Position numbers and translations under genes: made by a program. Of a stretch of 64,000 nucleotides of DNA, positions 6,008-43,377 are shown piece by piece; position 1 is the first letter of the stretch; each line of letters starts with the position of its first letter. The stretch is from Patescibacteria group bacterium (GTDB lineage: Bacteria; Patescibacteriota; Patescibacteriia; JACRDY01), in the NCBI GenBank assembly GCA_041653535.1, contig JBAZFH010000001.1, positions 214,175-278,174 of the forward strand, written 5' to 3'. The notes beneath the pieces are model-generated. The model had not been told where the DNA came from and ran no database searches. It saw nothing but the letters and a program-made list of their open reading frames with translations.

Positions 6008-7075
6008 TCAAGAAACTAAGCGAGAAGTAATTCCAGTGACCGTTTGATTGATAATGTCGACATTTTTGCCTAGATTTTCTTCGGTCAAAGACATTTTTTC
6101 CAGGGCTTTTTTGACTTCCGCTTCGGCGGTCAGCATCCGCAGATCTTGCTCGAAATTCATAATGCTGGTGTGAAAGTTTCTGGTTTCCTCGATGATGAAC
6201 GCGAAAACCTGAGCGGAGGTTTTTCGTTCTTTACTGATGGTCATGTCGGCGAGGCGTAGCGCTTCAAACTCGCTGATTTTTTCATAGTATTGGCTCGCCC
6301 TCGCTTCAATTTCGTTAATCCTTCCTTCCACGATTTGTTTCCAGCGAGAAAGCAGTTCTATGCTCTCGTCATTTTCTCGTTTTATTTTTTGCAGCTCGGC
6401 TATCCGCGAACCGCATAGACTGTTTTCTTGTCGGTTGAATTTTTTTATCTCGAAGCTTTTTAGCCGGGTTAGCAGTTTTTCGATTTCCAGATCTAAGCGA
6501 TCGGTTTCATCTGCTAATTTTTTGTAAGTGGAGTTCGCTCCGAGATAATGATTTTTCAGTTCGTCGATCTTTTTCTTGACGTAAACGGCAATCGGTTTTT
6601 CCGAACCGAAAACTTTTTGTATTTTTTCTCGCTTTAAGATTCGGTGGGCGAGGCGTGTTTTGTTTGAGATAATGTGTTCATCAAGACCAAGTCCTAACAA
6701 TAATCCAGCTAACCCACCGAGTAATCCAAAAAAAACAGTAGCAATAAACTGGTCGCTTGAAGACATGATTTGCTGCAGTTCAAAGTGGGAAAAGACTCCG
6801 GTTGTGAGCAGAAAGCCAAGAAGCGTTAATATCTTGCAGAAAAGATAGCGGCCGTGAATTTTTCCTTTTTTGCACACCGGGCAGTCAACGCTGCCTTCTT
6901 TTAGGATATTTTTTTCTTCTTCCGTCAGATCTACTCCGTTCAGTTCGTTCTCGTCCAGATTTGCCAGGTGCGCGATAGATTCGGTCTGCAATTTTTCAAA
7001 CGAATCAGGTACCACGTCGCTTGCTGAAATATCCGGTGGAGTTGCTGCGAGATTTCTTACTGCGGAATTGCTCAT
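6008..7075 (-). CDS. hypothetical membrane protein with N-terminal CPxCK zinc-ribbon-like motif, TM helices and long C-terminal coiled coil
   Basis: 355 aa with CPVCKKGK, a hydrophobic GLLGGLAGLLLGLGL segment and a heptad-rich C-terminus. Confidence 0.55.
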   Translation of the reverse strand: MSNSAVRNLAATPPDISASDVVPDSFEKLQTESIAHLANLDENELNGVDLTEEEKNILKEGSVDCPVCKKGKIHGRYLFCKILTLLGFLLTTGVFSHFELQQIMSSSDQFIATVFFGLLGGLAGLLLGLGLDEHIISNKTRLAHRILKREKIQKVFGSEKPIAVYVKKKIDELKNHYLGANSTYKKLADETDRLDLEIEKLLTRLKSFEIKKFNRQENSLCGSRIAELQKIKRENDESIELLSRWKQIVEGRINEIEARASQYYEKISEFEALRLADMTISKERKTSAQVFAFIIEETRNFHTSIMNFEQDLRMLTAEAEVKKALEKMSLTEENLGKNVDIINQTVTGITSRLVS

Positions 7076-7219
7076 TTTTTAAAACCTCCTGTGGTTTTTT
7101 GTTTTTGTCAACGTTCAGATATTATAACTTAACATAAAGTAGGTTTTTGTCAATTTTAATTTGATTCTATTTTTGACTTGCTTAAAATTAGCTAATTTCA
7201 TATAATAGAGCCAATTCAT

Positions 7220-8530
7220 ATGAAAAAACTTATTCAAAAAATCTTACGTTTTTTTGCCCGGCGGATTTTATTGAGATACAAGCCGCAGGTAGTCGGTATT
7301 ACCGGCAGTATCGGCAAGACTTCTTGTAAAGAAGCAATTTATACGGTTTTGTCGTCAGAGTTTAGTGCCAGACAAAACGATAAAAATTATAATAACGAAT
7401 TTGGCGTACCGTTAACTGTTATCGGCACTGAGACCGGCGGTAGAAATATTTTTAAATGGTTGCTGGTTTTTGGTAGGGCGACCAGGCTTTTATTTTGGCG
7501 CGATAAGAGTTATCCAGCGGTATTGGTATTAGAAATGGGCGCCGATCATCCGGGTGATATCAAATATCTGACTGATTTTGTAAAATGTTATGTCGGGGTG
7601 GTGACTGGAGTGGCTCCGGTACATATTGAATTTTTCGGTGATTTGGAAAATATCGCTAAGGAAAAAAGCGTTATGGTAAAAAGTTTGGATAAAAACGGCA
7701 TTGCAGTTTTGAACTACGACGATGAGCTGGTGCGCGGTATGGCAAACGGACTTCGTGCTGGCAAAGTGATTACCTATGGTTTTGAAGCAGGTGCCGAAGT
7801 GCAGGGCTACGAAGAAAAAATATCCGGTCAAAATATTTCGCGGAAAGACGGTGTAGAAGCGATTCGCGGTATTAGTTTTAAAGTATCATACGACGGCAAC
7901 GTGGTGCCAGTGTTTTTGCCGGCGGTAGTTGGTAAACATTCGGTCAATGCGGCGCTCGCAGCAATCGCCGTCGGTGTCGCTTTTGGTTTGAATCTGGTCC
8001 GCATTGCCGAAAGTCTGGGGCAGTATCGTCCGCCAAAAGGTAGGATGAATCTGATTGACGGCATTAAATATACTTTGATTATTGATGATACTTATAATTC
8101 TTCGCCAAAGCCGGCGATAGCGGCGTTAGAAGTGCTGGCTAAAGTGCAATTGCCGCAAGCTAGGCGCAAATATGCTGTCTTGGGCGACATGTTGGAGCTA
8201 GGCAGTTATACTGAACGCGCCCATTTGGAAGTGGGACGCAAAGTGGCTGAACTTGGTATTGATTATTTACTGACAGTGGGCGAGCGTTCACTGCAAGTAG
8301 CTAATGCAGCTATTGGCGCGGGGATGTCCGAAGATCGGGTTTATACATTTGACAATTCTGCAGAAGCTGGTAAATTTTTGCAGGACCGGATTGAGCAGGG
8401 AGATTTGATTTTAGTTAAAGGGTCGCAAGGTATGCGAATGGAAAAAATAGTTAAAGAACTGATGGCTGAGCCACTGCGCGCCAAAGAGTTGCTGGCTAGG
8501 CAGGGAGGAGGGTGGGAGGATAATTCGTAA
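7220..8530 (+). CDS. murF: UDP-N-acetylmuramoyl-tripeptide--D-alanyl-D-alanine ligase
   Basis: Mur ligase P-loop GITGSIGKTSCKEA and MurF-like central and C-terminal domains. Confidence 0.85.
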   Translation: MKKLIQKILRFFARRILLRYKPQVVGITGSIGKTSCKEAIYTVLSSEFSARQNDKNYNNEFGVPLTVIGTETGGRNIFKWLLVFGRATRLLFWRDKSYPAVLVLEMGADHPGDIKYLTDFVKCYVGVVTGVAPVHIEFFGDLENIAKEKSVMVKSLDKNGIAVLNYDDELVRGMANGLRAGKVITYGFEAGAEVQGYEEKISGQNISRKDGVEAIRGISFKVSYDGNVVPVFLPAVVGKHSVNAALAAIAVGVAFGLNLVRIAESLGQYRPPKGRMNLIDGIKYTLIIDDTYNSSPKPAIAALEVLAKVQLPQARRKYAVLGDMLELGSYTERAHLEVGRKVAELGIDYLLTVGERSLQVANAAIGAGMSEDRVYTFDNSAEAGKFLQDRIEQGDLILVKGSQGMRMEKIVKELMAEPLRAKELLARQGGGWEDNS

Positions 8531-8539
8531 TTGTTTTCC

Positions 8540-8616
8540 GGCCTCATCGTCTAATGGTTAGCCCGCCTCGACTCGCCGATGGCGAAGCCGAGGCGAGGCG
8601 GGGACGCCAGGTTCTC
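8540..8616 (+). pseudogene. tRNA-Glu 5' half (to anticodon loop TTCTC) interrupted in the D-loop by a 41-nt GC-rich hairpin (8562-8602)
   Basis: TCGTCTAATGGTTAG, insert, GACGCCAGGTTCTC matches positions 8-35 of the intact tRNA at 9192. The insert CCCGCCTCG...CGAGGCGGG is a perfect inverted repeat. Acceptor 5' strand GGCCTCA cannot pair with the downstream 3' strand. Confidence 0.75.
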
Positions 8617-8887
8617 TATGATGTATATAATTTATTGGTTAATTGATTTTGACAATAATAAAACCTATGTTGGTTTTACTGATGATTTAAAAAAGAGAAT
8701 CGCCGATCATAAATATGGCAAAACCAAAACAACGAGGAAATTTAAAATATCCAAGGTTTATATTTTAGAGCGGGTTGAAACTTTAGAGCTAGCTAGAAAA
8801 AGAGAAAAATATTGGAAGTCGGCGGCTGGCAGGAGAAAGTTAAAGGAGAAGTTTAGTAAAATTATGGCGCTATCGTCTAATGGTTAG
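8579..8887 (+). CDS. small GIY-YIG nuclease-superfamily protein, copy 1 (true start probably ATG 8618)
   Basis: YIIYWL...KTYVGFTDDLKKRIADH..G...KYWK is a GIY-YIG core. The track start lies inside the tRNA-derived hairpin; MMYIIYW at 8618 is more plausible. The last 6 codons plus TAG stop are encoded by the 5' end of the next tRNA copy (GCGCTATCGTCTAATGGTTAG). Confidence 0.75.
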   Translation: MAKPRRGGDARFSMMYIIYWLIDFDNNKTYVGFTDDLKKRIADHKYGKTKTTRKFKISKVYILERVETLELARKREKYWKSAAGRRKLKEKFSKIMALSSNG

Positions 8888-8942
8888 CCCGCCTCGACTC
8901 GCCGATGGCGAAGCCGAGGCGAGGCGGGGACGCCAGGTTCTC
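8866..8942 (+). pseudogene. tRNA-Glu 5' half, copy 2, with the same 41-nt hairpin insert
   Basis: Identical to copy 1 except for acceptor strand GGCGCTA, which matches the intact tRNA. Confidence 0.75.
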
Positions 8943-9213
8943 TATGATGTATATAATTTATTGGTTAATTGATTTTGACAATAATAAAACCTATGTTGGT
9001 TTTACTGATGATTTAAAAAAGAGAATCGCCGATCATAAATATGGCAAAACCAAAACAACGAGGAAATTTAAAATATCCAAGGTTTATATTTTAGAGCGGG
9101 TTGAAACTTTAGAGCTAGCTAGAAAAAGAGAAAAATATTGGAAGTCGGCGGCTGGCAGGAGAAAGTTAAAGGAGAAGTTTAGTAAAATTATGGCGCTATC
9201 GTCTAATGGTTAG
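8905..9213 (+). CDS. small GIY-YIG nuclease-superfamily protein, copy 2 (identical protein; probable start 8944)
   Basis: Protein 100% identical to copy 1. Its stop codon TAG 9211-9213 is the GGTTAG of the intact tRNA-Glu D-loop. Confidence 0.75.
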   Translation: MAKPRRGGDARFSMMYIIYWLIDFDNNKTYVGFTDDLKKRIADHKYGKTKTTRKFKISKVYILERVETLELARKREKYWKSAAGRRKLKEKFSKIMALSSNG

Positions 9214-9263
9214 GACGCCAGGTTCTCATCCTGGTAATCGGGGTTCGATTCCCCGTAGCGTCA
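9192..9263 (+). tRNA. tRNA-Glu (anticodon CUC), no encoded CCA
   Basis: Manual cloverleaf: acceptor GGCGCTA/TAGCGTC (7 bp, one GU), D stem GTCT/GGAC, anticodon stem CCAGG/CCTGG with loop TTCTCAT, T arm CGGGG-TTCGATT-CCCCG, discriminator A. Confidence 0.85.
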
Positions 9264-9351
9264 TGTACCGATGAGCTGTTCGACCTGCCTGCCGGTAGGC
9301 AGGGAGATGTTAAAGGGTATCCCTTCAGATGAGACTCGGAAGGATTGAAAT
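9264..9351 (+). ncRNA. conserved tRNA-trailer structured element, copy A
   Basis: Begins immediately after the tRNA 3' end. Shares three collinear blocks with copy B at 12498-12585: TACCGATGAGCTGTTCGA, AAGGGTATCC and TTCAGATRAGACTCGGAMGGATTGAAAT. Each copy carries a different internal hairpin. Confidence 0.5.
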
Positions 9352-9367
9352 TTTTCATTTAGAAACC

Positions 9368-9400
9368 AAAACTCCCTTGGAAGATACTCCAGGGAGTTTT
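9368..9400. terminator. bidirectional terminator hairpin
   Basis: AACTCCCTTGG-aagatact-CCAGGGAGTT flanked by A and T runs, between the + strand element and the convergent minus-strand gene. Confidence 0.6.
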
Positions 9401-9417
9401 GTTAGACAGACATACTT

Positions 9418-9942
9418 TTAAGAATTAATATTGGTGTTTGATCCGTCCATCGGGCCGGGTCCGTCAAAATTATTATCTCCTCTCATCGGTCCGTGGCCAG
9501 GTTGGCCGACCATGATCTCGGCGGCAGTTACATTCGTACCATCAACTTCGCCGTGCACCATAATCATGTCATCAACTTTCAAATCGGAAACGGCTAGGGT
9601 GGTTTCAGTTGGTTTTTCACCAGCCTCGCCCCGAGTCATTTCTTTCACAGTGGTGCCGGAAGTGTCAACGGTGTAAGTAACTTCGGTGGCATCTGGACCA
9701 AAACCTTGTTTACCGGTAATGGTGATGGTGGTACCGCTGATAGCGGAAATCTTACCCATAACACCTGGCCGATGTTGATTTCGATCTGGACTTTTTTCAC
9801 CCATCGGTTTGTTTGGTCCGTGGCCAGGTTGGCCGACGTCTGAGGCAGTATTAGTTCTAGCTAAGGCGTAATTTGCTCCGCTTAGAGTTAAAAGAGTTAA
9901 AGCTAGAATGGTTAGGATGAACAGTGATTTTTTGTGTTTCAT
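9418..9942 (-). CDS. secreted beta-strand repeat protein (DUF5666-like domain, 1 copy) with GQPGHGP motifs
   Basis: Signal peptide MKHKKSLFILTILALTLLTLSGANYALA. The domain GKISAISGTTITITGKQGFGPDATEVTYTVDTSGTTV...VSDLKVDDMIMVHGEVDGTNVTAAEIMV is a paralog of the repeats in the next gene. Confidence 0.6.
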   Translation of the reverse strand: MKHKKSLFILTILALTLLTLSGANYALARTNTASDVGQPGHGPNKPMGEKSPDRNQHRPGVMGKISAISGTTITITGKQGFGPDATEVTYTVDTSGTTVKEMTRGEAGEKPTETTLAVSDLKVDDMIMVHGEVDGTNVTAAEIMVGQPGHGPMRGDNNFDGPGPMDGSNTNINS

Positions 9943-10007
9943 AATTCGCTTGCTTGATTATTTTTTTGTTAATTCGACCTTTAGTTTATTTTAATTTCGA
10001 CCTTTTA

Positions 10008-10997
10008 CTATTTACCAAAACTAAATAGTCTGCTAAAAAAGTTACTAATTGAAGAGAAAAATTTAGACAAGAAACCAGTTGACTGTGAATGATCACCTTG
10101 ATTATTGCTTCTACCATTTAGGCCAGGCTGTTCTTGGTTGTCGTTAAGTAATTTTATGCCCTTAGAGATAGAAGCAGCAGTGATGGTTTGGTCGGAGATG
10201 GTTCCAGCTACTTTTAAAGTATCGCCGACGTTAATATCAGAAATACTTAAAGTTTTAGCATTAGAACCAACACCCTCAGTTATGGTAGCACTACTAGTAT
10301 CCACGGTGTAAGTAACATCAGTGGCGTTCTCACCAAATTCTTGCTTGCCAGTTAGAGTAATGGTAGTGTCGTTGATTGCTGTGACGGTGCCAGTGATGCC
10401 GCGCGACTGCTTATTGTCTTTTTTGTTTGGGTTTGAATTGCTTGAGCCGTTTGAATTTGCCGTTCCTACAGTTTTATTTTCTGATTTTTTATTGCTTGCT
10501 ATAGAATCTGTATTTGTGTTAGATCGGTTATTGGGTTTATCATTCATCCCTGGCCCTTGGTCGCCCATTTTGCCATCCATAATGGCAGTCGCCGTAACAG
10601 TCGTTCCGGAAACAGTGCCGGTAATCATTAAGGTGTCACCAACTTGGATATCAGAAACGGAGATAGTGGTTTCCGTTGGCTTAGAGACGTTAGTGTTAGA
10701 GTCAGTGGTAGGAGCAGATATTTTTTTCACCGTAGAGCTACTGGCATCCACGGTGTAAGTAACATCAGTGGCGTTCTCGCCAAATCCTTGCTTGCCGGTC
10801 AAGGTAATAGTAGTGCCGCTAATGTCTGCCACTGTGCCGGTAACACCGGGCGCGGGATGCGCTTGATCTTTTCCTTGGGGTGGTTCGAAATTTTGATCGG
10901 AATTCGCCGTATCGGCCAGAGTGAAATTTACGGTCAAGACACTGACGGCTAAGATCCCCGCTAGCGTCAAAAAAATTAGAGTTTTTCTTTTAGTCAT
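10008..10997 (-). CDS. secreted beta-strand repeat protein (2 x DUF5666-like domain) with low-complexity N/S/T-rich linkers
   Basis: Signal peptide present. Two copies of GxTGTVxxIxxTTITLTGKQxFGENATDVTYTVDxSSxT...SxSDIxVGDTLxxxGTxSxxTxTAxxI. Confidence 0.6.
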   Translation of the reverse strand: MTKRKTLIFLTLAGILAVSVLTVNFTLADTANSDQNFEPPQGKDQAHPAPGVTGTVADISGTTITLTGKQGFGENATDVTYTVDASSSTVKKISAPTTDSNTNVSKPTETTISVSDIQVGDTLMITGTVSGTTVTATAIMDGKMGDQGPGMNDKPNNRSNTNTDSIASNKKSENKTVGTANSNGSSNSNPNKKDNKQSRGITGTVTAINDTTITLTGKQEFGENATDVTYTVDTSSATITEGVGSNAKTLSISDINVGDTLKVAGTISDQTITAASISKGIKLLNDNQEQPGLNGRSNNQGDHSQSTGFLSKFFSSISNFFSRLFSFGK

Positions 10998-11160
10998 AAT
11001 TTTTGAAAGTTGTTTTTTAAATTAAAATGATACCTAGGTATAAAAATATTTCACATCTCGACCGTATTTCCATATATATTAATACGTTTGGGAGGCGACT
11101 TTTGGTGCATTTTTAGGTAAATTATGGTTGGTTATTCTTTGATTTTATTAAGACCTCATC

Positions 11161-11232
11161 GTCTAATGATTAGGATGCAGAGTTCTCATTCTGGTGATTG
11201 GGGCTCGATCTCCCGCGGGGGTTAATTATTAT
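11161..11232 (+). pseudogene. tRNA-Glu-like fragment or degenerate tRNA (5' part conserved to anticodon loop TTCTCAT; 3' acceptor strand does not pair)
   Basis: GACCTCATCGTCTAATGATTAGGA...TTCTCAT resembles copy 1 at 8540. A T-arm-like TGGGG-CTCGATC-TCCCG is present, but no 7-bp acceptor helix can be formed. Confidence 0.5.
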
Positions 11233-11278
11233 ATAAAAAAGACCGAGAATAAATTTCCCGGCTTTTTTATTCTGGCAA

Positions 11279-12331
11279 CTAAACTTTTTTGTACCTCGTC
11301 GTTCGACCTTGCCCTAGCCGCTCTATTTTTTTCAGTTGTAATAGTTTGTCTAATGCTTGAGAAACGGTCGGCCTAGCCACTTTGGTCGCTTTGGCAATTT
11401 CTCCCGGTGTTATTTCTTCACCCGATTCCAGACAACGCCAAACCGCTAACTGTTTTGGCGATAACAGTTTTTTAATATTTTCTGCAGATAGTAGATCTAT
11501 AGCTTGTTTAGCTTGAGTCAGTAAAATATTTAGGAAAAATTTTGTCCAGACCGAAATATCTTCCCTAGCTGCTCCAAAGGTTTTTTGGCTTTGGCGTAAT
11601 GCCAGATAATAGTCAGCCTTATTATCTTCAATCAATTTTTCATGCGAAACATAAGGCATATAAGCATAGCCGTATTTCAGCATCAAGAGATTGGCCAGTA
11701 TCCTAGAAAGCCGACCATTGCCATCTTGGAAAGGGTGGATTTTTAAAAACTCAACTACAAAATTACTGATTATCAGTAAAGGATGGGTTGTCTGCAAAAC
11801 AAGAGCTTCGTTGGTCCAATTCATTAATTCTTGCATTGCCTTGGGCGTTAAATACGCCGGAGTCGGAGCAAACAAAACGCTGATAGTTTTTCCGCTTTCA
11901 TCAAGTATTTCCACTTGATTCTCAATCGCTTTATATTTCCCTCGATGCCGTTCATCCTTATCCGCATACTTTAATAATTCCTTGTGTAAGTGCTTAATAG
12001 TACTTTCAGTAAAGGGGATACTGTTCCAAGAGCTAAAGACATTATCCAACAGTTCGTAGTAGCCCTGGACTTCCTGCTTATCTCGGTCAGCCAATTTTTG
12101 CAAAGATAGCCCGCGCATCAGTTTTTCAATTTCATTGTCAGTCAGCCTTGCTCCTTCAATTCTAGTAGATGCGCCTGTTGAAGTAACCAAAACTGAACGT
12201 TTTAGTCGTCCTAGTGCTTGAGGGTTTAATTGCGCCCCGCCGATCCACTGACCTTTTAGTTCATTAATTTGATTTAGGAGTAGCCAAATATCAGATGACA
12301 AGTTTTTAATCCGCTTTTCAAAATTATTCAT
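11279..12331 (-). CDS. Fic/Doc family protein (AMPylase-type fold) with C-terminal winged-helix DNA-binding domain
   Basis: Fic motif HPFQDGNGRLSR, plus a C-terminal HTH-like region (ITPGEIAKATKVARPTVSQALDKL). Confidence 0.85.
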   Translation of the reverse strand: MNNFEKRIKNLSSDIWLLLNQINELKGQWIGGAQLNPQALGRLKRSVLVTSTGASTRIEGARLTDNEIEKLMRGLSLQKLADRDKQEVQGYYELLDNVFSSWNSIPFTESTIKHLHKELLKYADKDERHRGKYKAIENQVEILDESGKTISVLFAPTPAYLTPKAMQELMNWTNEALVLQTTHPLLIISNFVVEFLKIHPFQDGNGRLSRILANLLMLKYGYAYMPYVSHEKLIEDNKADYYLALRQSQKTFGAAREDISVWTKFFLNILLTQAKQAIDLLSAENIKKLLSPKQLAVWRCLESGEEITPGEIAKATKVARPTVSQALDKLLQLKKIERLGQGRTTRYKKV

Positions 12332-43272: not shown

Positions 43273-43377
43273 GCCCGGCACCCCTCCTTGTTCCTCCCCT
43301 TGGCAGGGGAGGAGACTAGACGGAGTCTGTCTTATAGTTCTCCCCCTGCCAAGGGGGAGACGGAGGGGGTGCCGGGC
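43273..43377. repeat. GC-rich imperfect palindrome (~105 nt; outer stem GCCCGGCACCCCTCC/GGAGGGGGTGCCGGGC with two inner hairpins)
   Basis: Seen directly, immediately 5' of the DUF559 start codon. GC content is far above the genome background. Confidence 0.8.

Follow-up and report, generated by a model that had tools for sequence, protein, structure and literature searches.

The question raised by a short repeat array immediately upstream of a tRNA-Glu(CUC) gene in a Patescibacteria group bacterium is how a nuclease gene has come to lie against, and to end inside, an essential tRNA gene, and whether it is there as a mobile element, as a gene of the host or as a passenger. The array is found in a stretch of 64,000 nt (assembly GCA_041653535.1, contig JBAZFH010000001.1, positions 214,175-278,174 of the forward strand), hereafter the window, and it consists of two 326 bp units that each combine a 5′ piece of tRNA-Glu, a GC-rich palindrome and a small open reading frame (ORF) for a GIY-YIG nuclease. 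We favour the reading that the unit is a selfish, homing-like cassette lodged at the 5′ side of tRNA-Glu(CUC) and recently duplicated in tandem, to which we would assign a probability of roughly 60 %.

Anatomy and duplication of the array

The two near-identical 326 bp units 5′ of an intact tRNA-Glu(CUC) gene that were reported in a preliminary description of this sequence were recovered by Tandem Repeats Finder (TRF) as a single array (8546-9213, period 326, 2.0 copies, 100 % matches, 0 indels), and direct comparison of 8540-8865 with 8866-9191 revealed 3 differences, all at 8543-8545, where CTC in the first unit corresponds to GCT in the second (acceptor positions 4-6). The tRNA gene that follows the array was identified by both ARAGORN (9191-9264) and Rfam (9192-9263, 64.6 bits) and folds as a clean cloverleaf. 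Each unit is made up, in order, of tRNA positions 1-22, a 41 nt palindrome, tRNA positions 23-36 and an 89-codon GIY-YIG ORF that starts two bases past the second tRNA fragment. The features, in window coordinates, are as follows.

8497-8524, plus strand: promoter-like site TAGGCA-16-GATAAT at the end of murF (consensus scan only)
8540-8561, plus strand: tRNA-Glu-like fragment, linear positions 1-22, copy 1, acceptor GGCCTCA
8546-9213, plus strand: extent of the exact tandem repeat, period 326, 2.0 copies (TRF)
8562-8602, no strand: 41 nt GC-rich palindrome, copy 1, at tRNA 22/23, within the 3′ strand of the D-stem
8603-8616, plus strand: tRNA-Glu fragment, positions 23-36 (GACGCCAGGTTCTC), copy 1, ending with the third anticodon base, C36
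8618-8887, plus strand: GIY-YIG ORF, copy 1, 89 aa and TAG; alternative start at 8621
8866-8887, plus strand: tRNA-Glu fragment, positions 1-22, copy 2, with the acceptor of the functional tRNA (GGCGCTA); duplication junction
8888-8928, no strand: 41 nt palindrome, copy 2, identical to copy 1
8929-8942, plus strand: tRNA-Glu fragment, positions 23-36, copy 2
8944-9213, plus strand: GIY-YIG ORF, copy 2, with its last 22 nt and TAG within the functional tRNA
9192-9263, plus strand: intact tRNA-Glu(CUC), acceptor GGCGCTA/TAGCGTC (ARAGORN, Rfam)
9375-9394, plus strand: terminator-like hairpin and T-run, 3′ of the tRNA

The tRNA pieces of each unit make up a 5′ half that runs to the anticodon loop, as had been described, and ends exactly on C36. 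The palindrome is absent from the intact tRNA, and the 3′ strand TAGCGTC pairs with GGCGCTA, present in copy 2 and in the tRNA itself, but not with GGCCTCA, the acceptor of copy 1; both points had been noted correctly at the outset. The claim that the ORF takes its 3′ coding end from the next tRNA copy also held, as the final 22 nt of each ORF (G GCG CTA TCG TCT AAT GGT TAG), TAG stop included, are positions 1-22 of that copy. Hence, palindrome copy 2 begins directly after the stop codon of ORF copy 1, and ORF copy 2 ends inside the functional tRNA. GC content is 30 % in the ORF core and 78 % in the palindrome, compared to 42 % for the whole window. A consensus scan of the plus strand detected no promoter-like site within the units and, 5′ of the array, only the site at 8497-8524; it is thus probable that one transcript covers both ORFs and the tRNA.

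Unit 2 starts with GGCGCT, as does the acceptor of the intact tRNA, and unit 1 starts with GGCCTC, which is the outcome expected from one unequal exchange within the shared ATCGTCTAATGGTTAG. This arrangement would arise if the upstream fragment on one chromatid exchanged with the intact tRNA on the other, and an equivalent product would be given by repair of a break at the intact tRNA using the upstream copy as template. As the repeated units are fully identical, the duplication must be very recent. Campbell-type integration of a 326 bp circle was considered and rejected, as it predicts an acceptor of the host type in the left copy, where GGCCTCA is found. The GGCCTCA fragment was also present in L201, which has no ORF, and in L007 (L-numbers are labels for the loci of relatives and the metagenome contigs that were compared), and the functional tRNAs there differ. 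This recurrence indicates that the left fragment may move together with the cassette and undergo partial homogenisation with the resident tRNA. No exact tandem duplication of the ORF was found in other loci among the 74 described below.

An exact repeat of this kind could also be produced by mis-resolution during assembly, the true genome having one unit or some other number, as 668 nt are 100 % identical and short-read assemblers cannot count exact repeats that exceed the k-mer or insert size. In the related L203, the contig breaks off exactly within the tRNA segment that is repeated. However, the junction at 8858-8893 (AAAATTATGGCGCTATCGTCTAATGGTTAG directly followed by CCCGCC), in which the ORF end with GGCGCT leads into a palindrome, requires a second unit after the first and is impossible in a genome with a single unit. 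Hence, at least two units must be present in at least part of the population, and the true number could be higher than two. More than 12 other assemblies independently have the architecture with a single unit, and we regard an assembly artefact as very unlikely.

A minimal nuclease linked to tRNA genes

The product of the ORF, predicted at the outset to be a GIY-YIG nuclease of about 90 aa, is 89 aa long and matches the Pfam GIY-YIG domain (PF01541) over residues 2-74 with a score of 46.5 bits (E 4.6e-12; cutoff 22.6 bits). When 24 homologues were aligned, every named source being a member of the Patescibacteria, the key residues Y6, Y17, G19, R27, H31 and E63 were invariant. From what is established for I-TevI and UvrC, we take these to fill the catalytic roles (GIY Tyr, YIG Tyr, Arg, His/Tyr and Glu). 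A basic C-terminal motif, KREKYWKSxAGRRKLK, is also strongly conserved in the 24 homologues and marks the subfamily, and the C-termini of several database homologues are tRNA-encoded peptides, e.g. ...MALSSNG and ...PPSSSG.

When a profile of the family was compared to the PDB, the matches were 1zg2 (BH0048, UPF0213; E 3e-9), 1ywl (EF2693; E 4e-7) and SLX1 7wme (E 3e-4). The AlphaFold2 model has a mean predicted local distance difference test (pLDDT) score of 91.2, with a mean of 74 for residues 81-89, which include the tRNA-encoded ones, and in Foldseek the best-ranked structures were the GIY-YIG domains of 1zg2, I-TevI (catalytic domain, template modelling score 0.57) and UvrC, with Slx1 lower and none at E <= 0.001. 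The alignment of 24 homologues has no invariant Asn, and the UvrC/I-TevI lineage typically has one near the C-terminus (PMC1564403). Only the catalytic domain is present and no DNA-recognition module that could provide specificity for a long site was recognised by Pfam or in the AlphaFold2 model; for this reason the element is referred to here as homing-like and not as a homing endonuclease gene. Taken on sequence and model, the protein appears to be a catalytic-domain-only GIY-YIG nuclease, with predicted activity, from the bacterial Slx1-like/UPF0213 branch and not a classical homing endonuclease, a distinction that the preliminary description had overlooked. In NCBIfam, the sole match fell below threshold and covered the N-terminal part of the model for group I intron endonuclease (TIGR01453; 26.9 bits, cutoff 56). 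PHROGs gave only a generic 'homing endonuclease' match (E 3e-6), and a PADLOC scan for defence systems gave nothing significant.

A scan of one genome per species yielded 74 loci with related ORFs, all in Patescibacteria-type metagenome-assembled genomes. A tRNA gene lies on the same strand within 350 nt of the ORF in 66 of the 74 and on the opposite strand in none, where the chance expectation for tRNA adjacency, based on the tRNA density in the window (2 genes in 64 kb), is ~2 %. In a neighbour-joining tree, the ORFs associated with tRNA-Glu, including those in the window, form one clade, and the loci outside this clade are mostly beside tRNA-Gly, with a few beside tRNA-Leu, -Arg, -Met, -Asp or -Cys. 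The layout in the Glu clade is a tRNA fragment (positions 1-12 or 1-22), a GC palindrome, a further tRNA fragment, the ORF and an intact tRNA-Glu, and the arrangement seen in the window was also found in L001-L005, L007-L009, L013, L016, L203 and L204, the last two of which were retrieved via the closest homologues. The ORF stops inside the tRNA in at least seven other loci (L001, L003, L004, L016, L036, L203 and L204) and 4-20 nt short of it in some members. Judged from these sequences, the overlap between ORF and tRNA is a recurrent property of the family.

The preliminary description had proposed a mobile GIY-YIG cassette cycling through the anticodon loop. The association with tRNA-Glu stands and mobility is indicated by the comparisons below, but the anticodon loop is not the constant feature, as the tRNA fragment ends at ~22, 29, 33 or 36 in relatives and the landmark that recurs is the palindrome at 22/23. 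The fragment sits where the native 5′ end of the tRNA would be.

Relatives at the orthologous site were found using the MurF of the window, and seven with 65-76 % MurF identity were examined (L199-L202 and L205-L207). All seven of these closest relatives lack a GIY-YIG ORF between murF and tRNA-Glu. L205 and L206 have the tRNA allele of the window (GGCGCTA...TAGCGTCA; 97 % identity over the tRNA for L205) and no 5′ fragment and, on this comparison, look like empty sites, and L199 shares with the window the sequence immediately 3′ of the tRNA. The ORF is present at the murF-tRNA-Glu site in the distant L005 and L007 (43-47 % MurF identity), a distribution that would fit independent arrivals at the same target. 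The cassettes in L048 and L049 share 89 % nucleotide identity across ~329 bp only, comprising the ORF with 42 nt upstream and 35 nt downstream, and their flanks, tRNA-Gly genes included, cannot be aligned. The same pattern was seen for L024/L050, L022/L029 and L055/L062. The L048 and L049 ORFs are the one pair close enough for the ratio of non-synonymous to synonymous substitution rates (dN/dS) to be measured, and the value of 0.086 points to strong purifying selection on the ORF in this pair.

Both the selection and the linkage to tRNA genes would equally be expected if the ORF were a domesticated GIY-YIG gene co-transcribed with tRNA-Glu or tRNA-Gly and served the host, e.g. as a DNA-repair or RNA/tRNA-processing nuclease, with the tRNA fragments as debris. 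Its presence at the murF-tRNA-Glu site in three divergent genomes (the window, L005 and L007) agrees with this, and fusion of a bacterial Slx1-like domain to TrmH has been taken as a hint of a role in RNA metabolism (PMC1564403). However, a host gene sits poorly with the lack of the ORF at the orthologous site in all of the closest relatives examined and with the 89 %-identical cassette in unrelated flanks. The tblastn matches at 15 of the 74 loci are short or contain a stop codon and are degenerate-looking by that criterion (L005 and L012 at least have a complete ORF), more than one GIY-YIG ORF is present in L009, L061 and L062, these being distinct paralogues and not identical copies, and the composition is foreign. 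A stop codon within the tRNA would in addition make full expression of the ORF and maturation of the tRNA mutually exclusive. Empty and occupied sites, shared cassettes in unrelated flanks, degenerate matches, loci with several ORFs and the contrast in GC together argue for a selfish mobile cassette and not a stable host gene, and we consider a host function unlikely.

Two of the loci with several ORFs are of more complex structure. In L009 (2924-4095), one tRNA-Glu has different GIY-YIG ORFs on both sides, and the tRNA pieces are interrupted by up to three types of hairpin, at 12/13, 22/23 and 35/36. In L062 (280-1236), two ORFs are interleaved with tRNA-Gly, tRNA-Arg and tRNA-His.

Palindromic elements and the explanations they bear on

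The insertion in the tRNA fragment had been described as a perfect 41 nt hairpin. A GC palindrome of this length is present at 22/23, but only the outer 9 bp stem is perfect and the interior is imperfect (fold -24.4 kcal/mol). The two copies in the array are the only ones in the window, and no match was obtained in 100 shuffles of the window. Target-site duplications were found neither at the window palindrome nor at those in the tRNA sites of relatives. Palindromes with the same ends (CCCGCCTCG...CGAGGCGGG) lie at tRNA 22/23 in the window, L001, L002, L004-L007, L011, L200 and L203, and others are at 12/13 or 10/11 in L008-L011, L013 and L204. They are 33-50 nt long and GC-rich in low-GC genomes resembling those of the Candidate Phyla Radiation (CPR), and the asymmetric interior can point either way at a given site. 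GC-rich perfect hairpins within 250 nt of the Glu-clade ORFs are ~15-fold enriched (2.32 versus 0.15 per kb).

The hairpin family was also found in protein genes. A scan of metagenome contigs gave mostly chance matches in high-GC contigs, and the 16 contigs with GC <= 0.50 were examined. The palindromes in these low-GC contigs lie in frame in the genes for UvrA (L076, 9994-10035), KsgA/RsmA (L106, 7628-7663), LeuRS (L136, 3994-4035), SecD (L087, 1668-1705) and transketolase (L193, 3591-3626), where they add peptides such as PPRVDEASMRVEA. The reading frame is kept in all five and the palindrome length is a multiple of three in four (the SecD match is 38 nt). Hairpin-split pseudo-tRNA-Glu copies beside an intact tRNA-Glu were present in L200 and L201 with no ORF. 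From these distributions, the palindrome is an independent mini-element that is strikingly concentrated in GIY-YIG cassettes, which had previously been overlooked. The pseudo-tRNA in L200 (5356-5424) was called by ARAGORN as a second tRNA-Glu gene, and such fragments can inflate tRNA counts.

Palindromes that occur without the ORF raise the question of whether the GIY-YIG gene is only a passenger without a role in mobility, the tRNA repeats and palindromes rearranging by slippage, cruciform breakage and the RecA of the host. The ORF-less pseudo-tRNAs in L200 and L201, the ORF-less GC-rich insertions with duplicated tRNA 3′ ends in L205 and L010, and the ability of the palindrome family to reach protein-coding genes by itself are consistent with this. 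However, the ORF clade matches the tRNA type and the cassette boundaries are discrete and highly conserved, which argues that the ORF is a unit under selection, and strong palindrome enrichment is seen only beside ORFs. We judge a passenger role to be quite unlikely.

The hairpins could alternatively be RNA structures, and the preliminary description had allowed for an origin resembling a group I intron. In this case the ORF and hairpins would be a group I or novel intron, or a remnant of one, in the anticodon loop or D-loop of tRNA-Glu that is removed from the RNA. Group I introns at 35/36 are common in tRNA genes of Patescibacteria (PMC13011429), the tRNA fragment in the window ends at position 36, and the weak TIGR01453 match points in the same direction. 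However, a search of 8300-9600 on both strands against Rfam at E <= 10 identified only tRNA and no intron or ribozyme family, confirming the earlier remark that no intron core is evident. When 31 inserts were folded on both strands, the summed energies were -795.7 and -801.0 kcal/mol, with 13 and 17 G-U pairs, and by this equal folding the inserts behave as DNA palindromes and not as strand-specific RNA structures; an intron or riboregulator RNA structure was accordingly dropped. The 'exons' of copy 1 would also yield a mismatched acceptor stem, an intact tRNA free of the hairpin lies alongside, and the palindrome lengths in the protein genes indicate that they are translated and not spliced.

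Insertion of integrative elements leaves a partial direct repeat beside a regenerated, intact tRNA, and the partial tRNA copies might thus be attL/attR-type repeats remaining from an island with a tyrosine integrase. The segment duplicated in the tRNA-Gly relatives is indeed the 3′ end of the tRNA. However, what is duplicated in the window is the 5′ half, the insert measures 326 bp in total, and no integrase-like ORF is evident in the list of ORFs for 6500-11500, where two neighbours were profiled (murF and DUF5666). The intron and integrase readings are both essentially ruled out. A phage origin was also rejected; a scan of viral contigs gave 4 weak partial protein matches and a blastn search of phages matched only tRNA-Glu genes.

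Proposed mechanism, precedents and minor features

The selfish cassette favoured here could work as follows, though the specific mechanism of break and repair is tentative and we hold it with somewhat less than even confidence. One cassette consists of a dead 5′ piece of tRNA-Glu (1-36) with the palindrome at 22/23 and a promoterless 89-codon nuclease gene that, having no stop codon of its own, reads 22 nt into the next tRNA or tRNA-like copy. As one complete tRNA copy is always kept, the essential gene is not inactivated and an intron is unnecessary. The cassette would be transcribed from the tRNA promoter, and cleavage by RNase P at the 5′ end of the tRNA would deprive the tRNA-proximal ORF of its stop codon and thereby throttle expression of the nuclease. 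The nuclease may break DNA in or beside tRNA-Glu sequence or, as a structure-specific Slx1-like enzyme, at the extruded palindrome. Repair using the short tRNA-derived repeats as homology could then copy the cassette into an unoccupied tRNA gene, and repair with the occupied locus itself, by unequal exchange in the 16-22 nt repeat, would give a tandem duplication.

Several points weigh against the cassette being selfish and homing-like. A catalytic domain with no recognisable DNA-binding module does not, from its sequence, obviously permit sequence-specific homing, and a protein of this kind is an odd candidate for the specificity for tRNA type that the tree implies. The intact tRNA beside the cassette should remain a target, and if the neighbouring functional tRNA can still be cleaved this could be the reason why amplification happens and why a stop codon in the tRNA might matter. 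The GGCCTCA acceptor of copy 1 differs from the host allele, which is GGCGCTA in the window, L205 and L206, and is not produced by a simple Campbell-type or gap-repair scheme. The pseudo-tRNAs with hairpins in L200 and L201 indicate that the ORF is not needed to maintain them, and a host function would likewise be compatible with the strong purifying selection and the near-universal linkage to tRNA genes. Finally, the count of 326 bp units depends on the assembly, and the role as a nuclease on sequence and a structural model.

The nearest precedent in the literature is SegB, a free-standing GIY-YIG endonuclease of phages T4 and T6. SegB homes, and its site recognition includes the TψC motif of tRNA genes (PMC2330249). 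In phage T6, SegB drives the recombination-dependent tandem amplification of a 718 bp unit of tRNA-Tyr and segB, in which microhomology of the 5′ end of the tRNA with the 3′ end of segB is involved (PMC13096335). The two systems share a GIY-YIG gene among tRNA genes and tandem units of tRNA and nuclease; the target of SegB contains a motif conserved in tRNA genes, and the enzyme promotes the inheritance of its own gene together with that of adjacent tRNA DNA. By analogy, amplification of the tRNA and segB units may parallel the tandem duplication in the window. SegB is a phage protein of ~220 aa with a DNA-binding part, whereas the protein in the window, a member of the UPF0213/Slx1 branch, is 89 aa long, consists of only the catalytic domain and is encoded on the chromosome of CPR bacteria. 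The cassette in the window is also unlike segB in being bracketed by partial tRNA duplicates bearing palindromes, and in having an ORF that ends inside a tRNA.

The best relatives in both sequence and fold, the UPF0213/Slx1-like proteins BH0048 (1zg2) and EF2693 (1ywl), share the stand-alone minimal GIY-YIG domain. The bacterial Slx1-like cluster was classified by Dunin-Horkawicz et al. in 2006 (PMC1564403), and its members are described as vertically inherited housekeeping or repair candidates, unlike the cassette in the window. Linkage to tRNA genes, partial tRNA duplications and mobility were not described for them in the literature compared. The tRNA group I introns of Patescibacteria likewise colonise an essential tRNA gene near the anticodon, keep tRNA function and may carry an endonuclease gene, but they do so by ribozyme splicing, whereas the window cassette has no ribozyme and function is kept by a complete duplicate copy; the paper on these introns (35/36) does not mention GIY-YIG, tRNA-Glu or hairpins (PMC13011429). 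Integrative islands and prophages also regenerate the intact tRNA and leave a partial direct repeat, but they differ in having an integrase, a size of kilobases and duplication of the 3′ part of the tRNA.

Rickettsia palindromic elements (RPE) are short palindromes found in frame within protein genes. The 41 nt hairpin resembles RPE and palindromes of the repetitive extragenic palindromic (REP) type in being short, selfish and present at many loci, in housekeeping protein and RNA genes, but its family differs in its length range, GC-richness and ends, in the low-GC CPR-like genomes in which it is found, in the lack of a target duplication and in the two orientations that its interior can take. 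The hairpin sequence was found in no paper, and the searchable literature contained no description of palindromic elements in CPR or of minimal GIY-YIG cassettes lodged in tRNA genes, in agreement with the initial remark that no such arrangement had been described. A free-standing gene for a homing-type nuclease at tRNA genes is of a known kind, and what is new is the minimal nuclease, the preservation of the target by partial duplication and the palindromic partners; the cassette family is apparently widespread and undescribed.

If the selfish cassette is real, it would represent a third mode, beside introns and inteins, by which a homing-type nuclease gene can reside inside an essential gene, and it would account for the tRNA fragments and spurious tRNA predictions met in the vicinity of tRNA-Glu and tRNA-Gly in genomes of Patescibacteria. 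Cassette debris is unexpected in organisms with tiny genomes. The family also indicates a large pool of minimal nucleases of ~85 aa and suggests a built-in coupling of tRNA 5′ processing to nuclease expression, and the palindromic mini-elements in UvrA, LeuRS, SecD and others would be the Patescibacteria counterpart of the RPE. A broader reading, which is possible though we regard it as doubtful, joins these strands: the Slx1-like nuclease and the GC palindromes, in a partnership like that of REP sequences and REP-associated tyrosine transposases (RAYT), would form a new class of mobile element that enters tRNA genes by 'duplicative homing', preserving its target by partial duplication and not as an intron. 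The nuclease would also mobilise the palindromes in trans, giving rise to the in-frame insertions in housekeeping proteins of Patescibacteria, and expression would be gated by RNase P via the stop codon in the tRNA.

Relatives at tRNA-Gly, tRNA-Asp and tRNA-Met have a different module between the tRNA and the ORF (L012, L014, L017, L019, L023, L024, L031, L034, L041, L046-L049, L052, L062 and others). The 3′ end of the tRNA is followed by an AT-rich perfect palindrome, then by AGGCTCG and a GC hairpin, after which the 3′-terminal tRNA sequence is repeated directly (CCCGCTC and variants) ahead of the ORF. The final 4-6 nt of the tRNA are part of the stem of the AT-rich palindrome, and stem and tRNA covary; the arms are wholly different between 89 %-identical cassettes, yet symmetric. 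The module is absent from tRNA-Gly genes that have no cassette, and the possibility that the AT-rich palindrome is the native terminator was ruled out on this basis. In a tRNA-Gly subgroup (L015, 3258-3314; L064, 3262-3323; L068, 3268-3326; L045, 3274-3339), the ORF is directly 3′ of the tRNA and the conserved C-terminal 'GFPP' is coded by a T-arm fragment (GGGTTC) and the start of a GC module with two hairpins. This module sits in the T-loop, and the duplicated tRNA 3′ end comes after it.

The ORF-less GC-rich structured insertions in L205 (2009-2189) and L010 (3462-3662) are ~165-180 nt long, and the 3′ end of tRNA-Glu (positions 57-73) is repeated after them. Folding as DNA gave a z-score of -5.5, and an Rfam search of the L205 insertion gave no match. 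Similar 3′-end repeats lie ~200 bp 3′ of tRNA-Glu in L003, L008, L009 and L016.

The spacer between murF and tRNA-Glu in relatives contains a gene of the 23S_rRNA_IVP/bAvd family between inverted repeats (L200, 4831-5236; L205, 1513-1936; L207, 4300-4778; L202, 4810-5330). The inverted repeats are of the (AATTACG)n type in L200, L205 and L207, and L202 has a different one. An inverted-repeat remnant without the gene is present in L199 (4800-4985), and one AATTCGTAATT is left in the window (8523-8533). From these sequences, the spacer appears to be a hotspot for a second small mobile cassette.

Elsewhere in the window, a decayed tRNA-Glu(CUC)-like pseudogene with the acceptor GACCTCA lies on the plus strand at 11155-11225, 1.9 kb 3′ of the functional tRNA and past the minus-strand ORFs 9418-9942 (a weak Pfam assignment to DUF5666) and 10008-10997. 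It shares 83 % identity with the intact tRNA over positions 7-58, was not matched by the Rfam tRNA model, and is followed by a terminator-like hairpin (11235-11270); Rfam gave no intron or other non-tRNA family for this region either. Nested GC-rich palindromes (TCCTCCCCTTGGCAGGGGAGGA ... TCTCCCCCTGCCAAGGGGGAGA) are present at 43292-43360.

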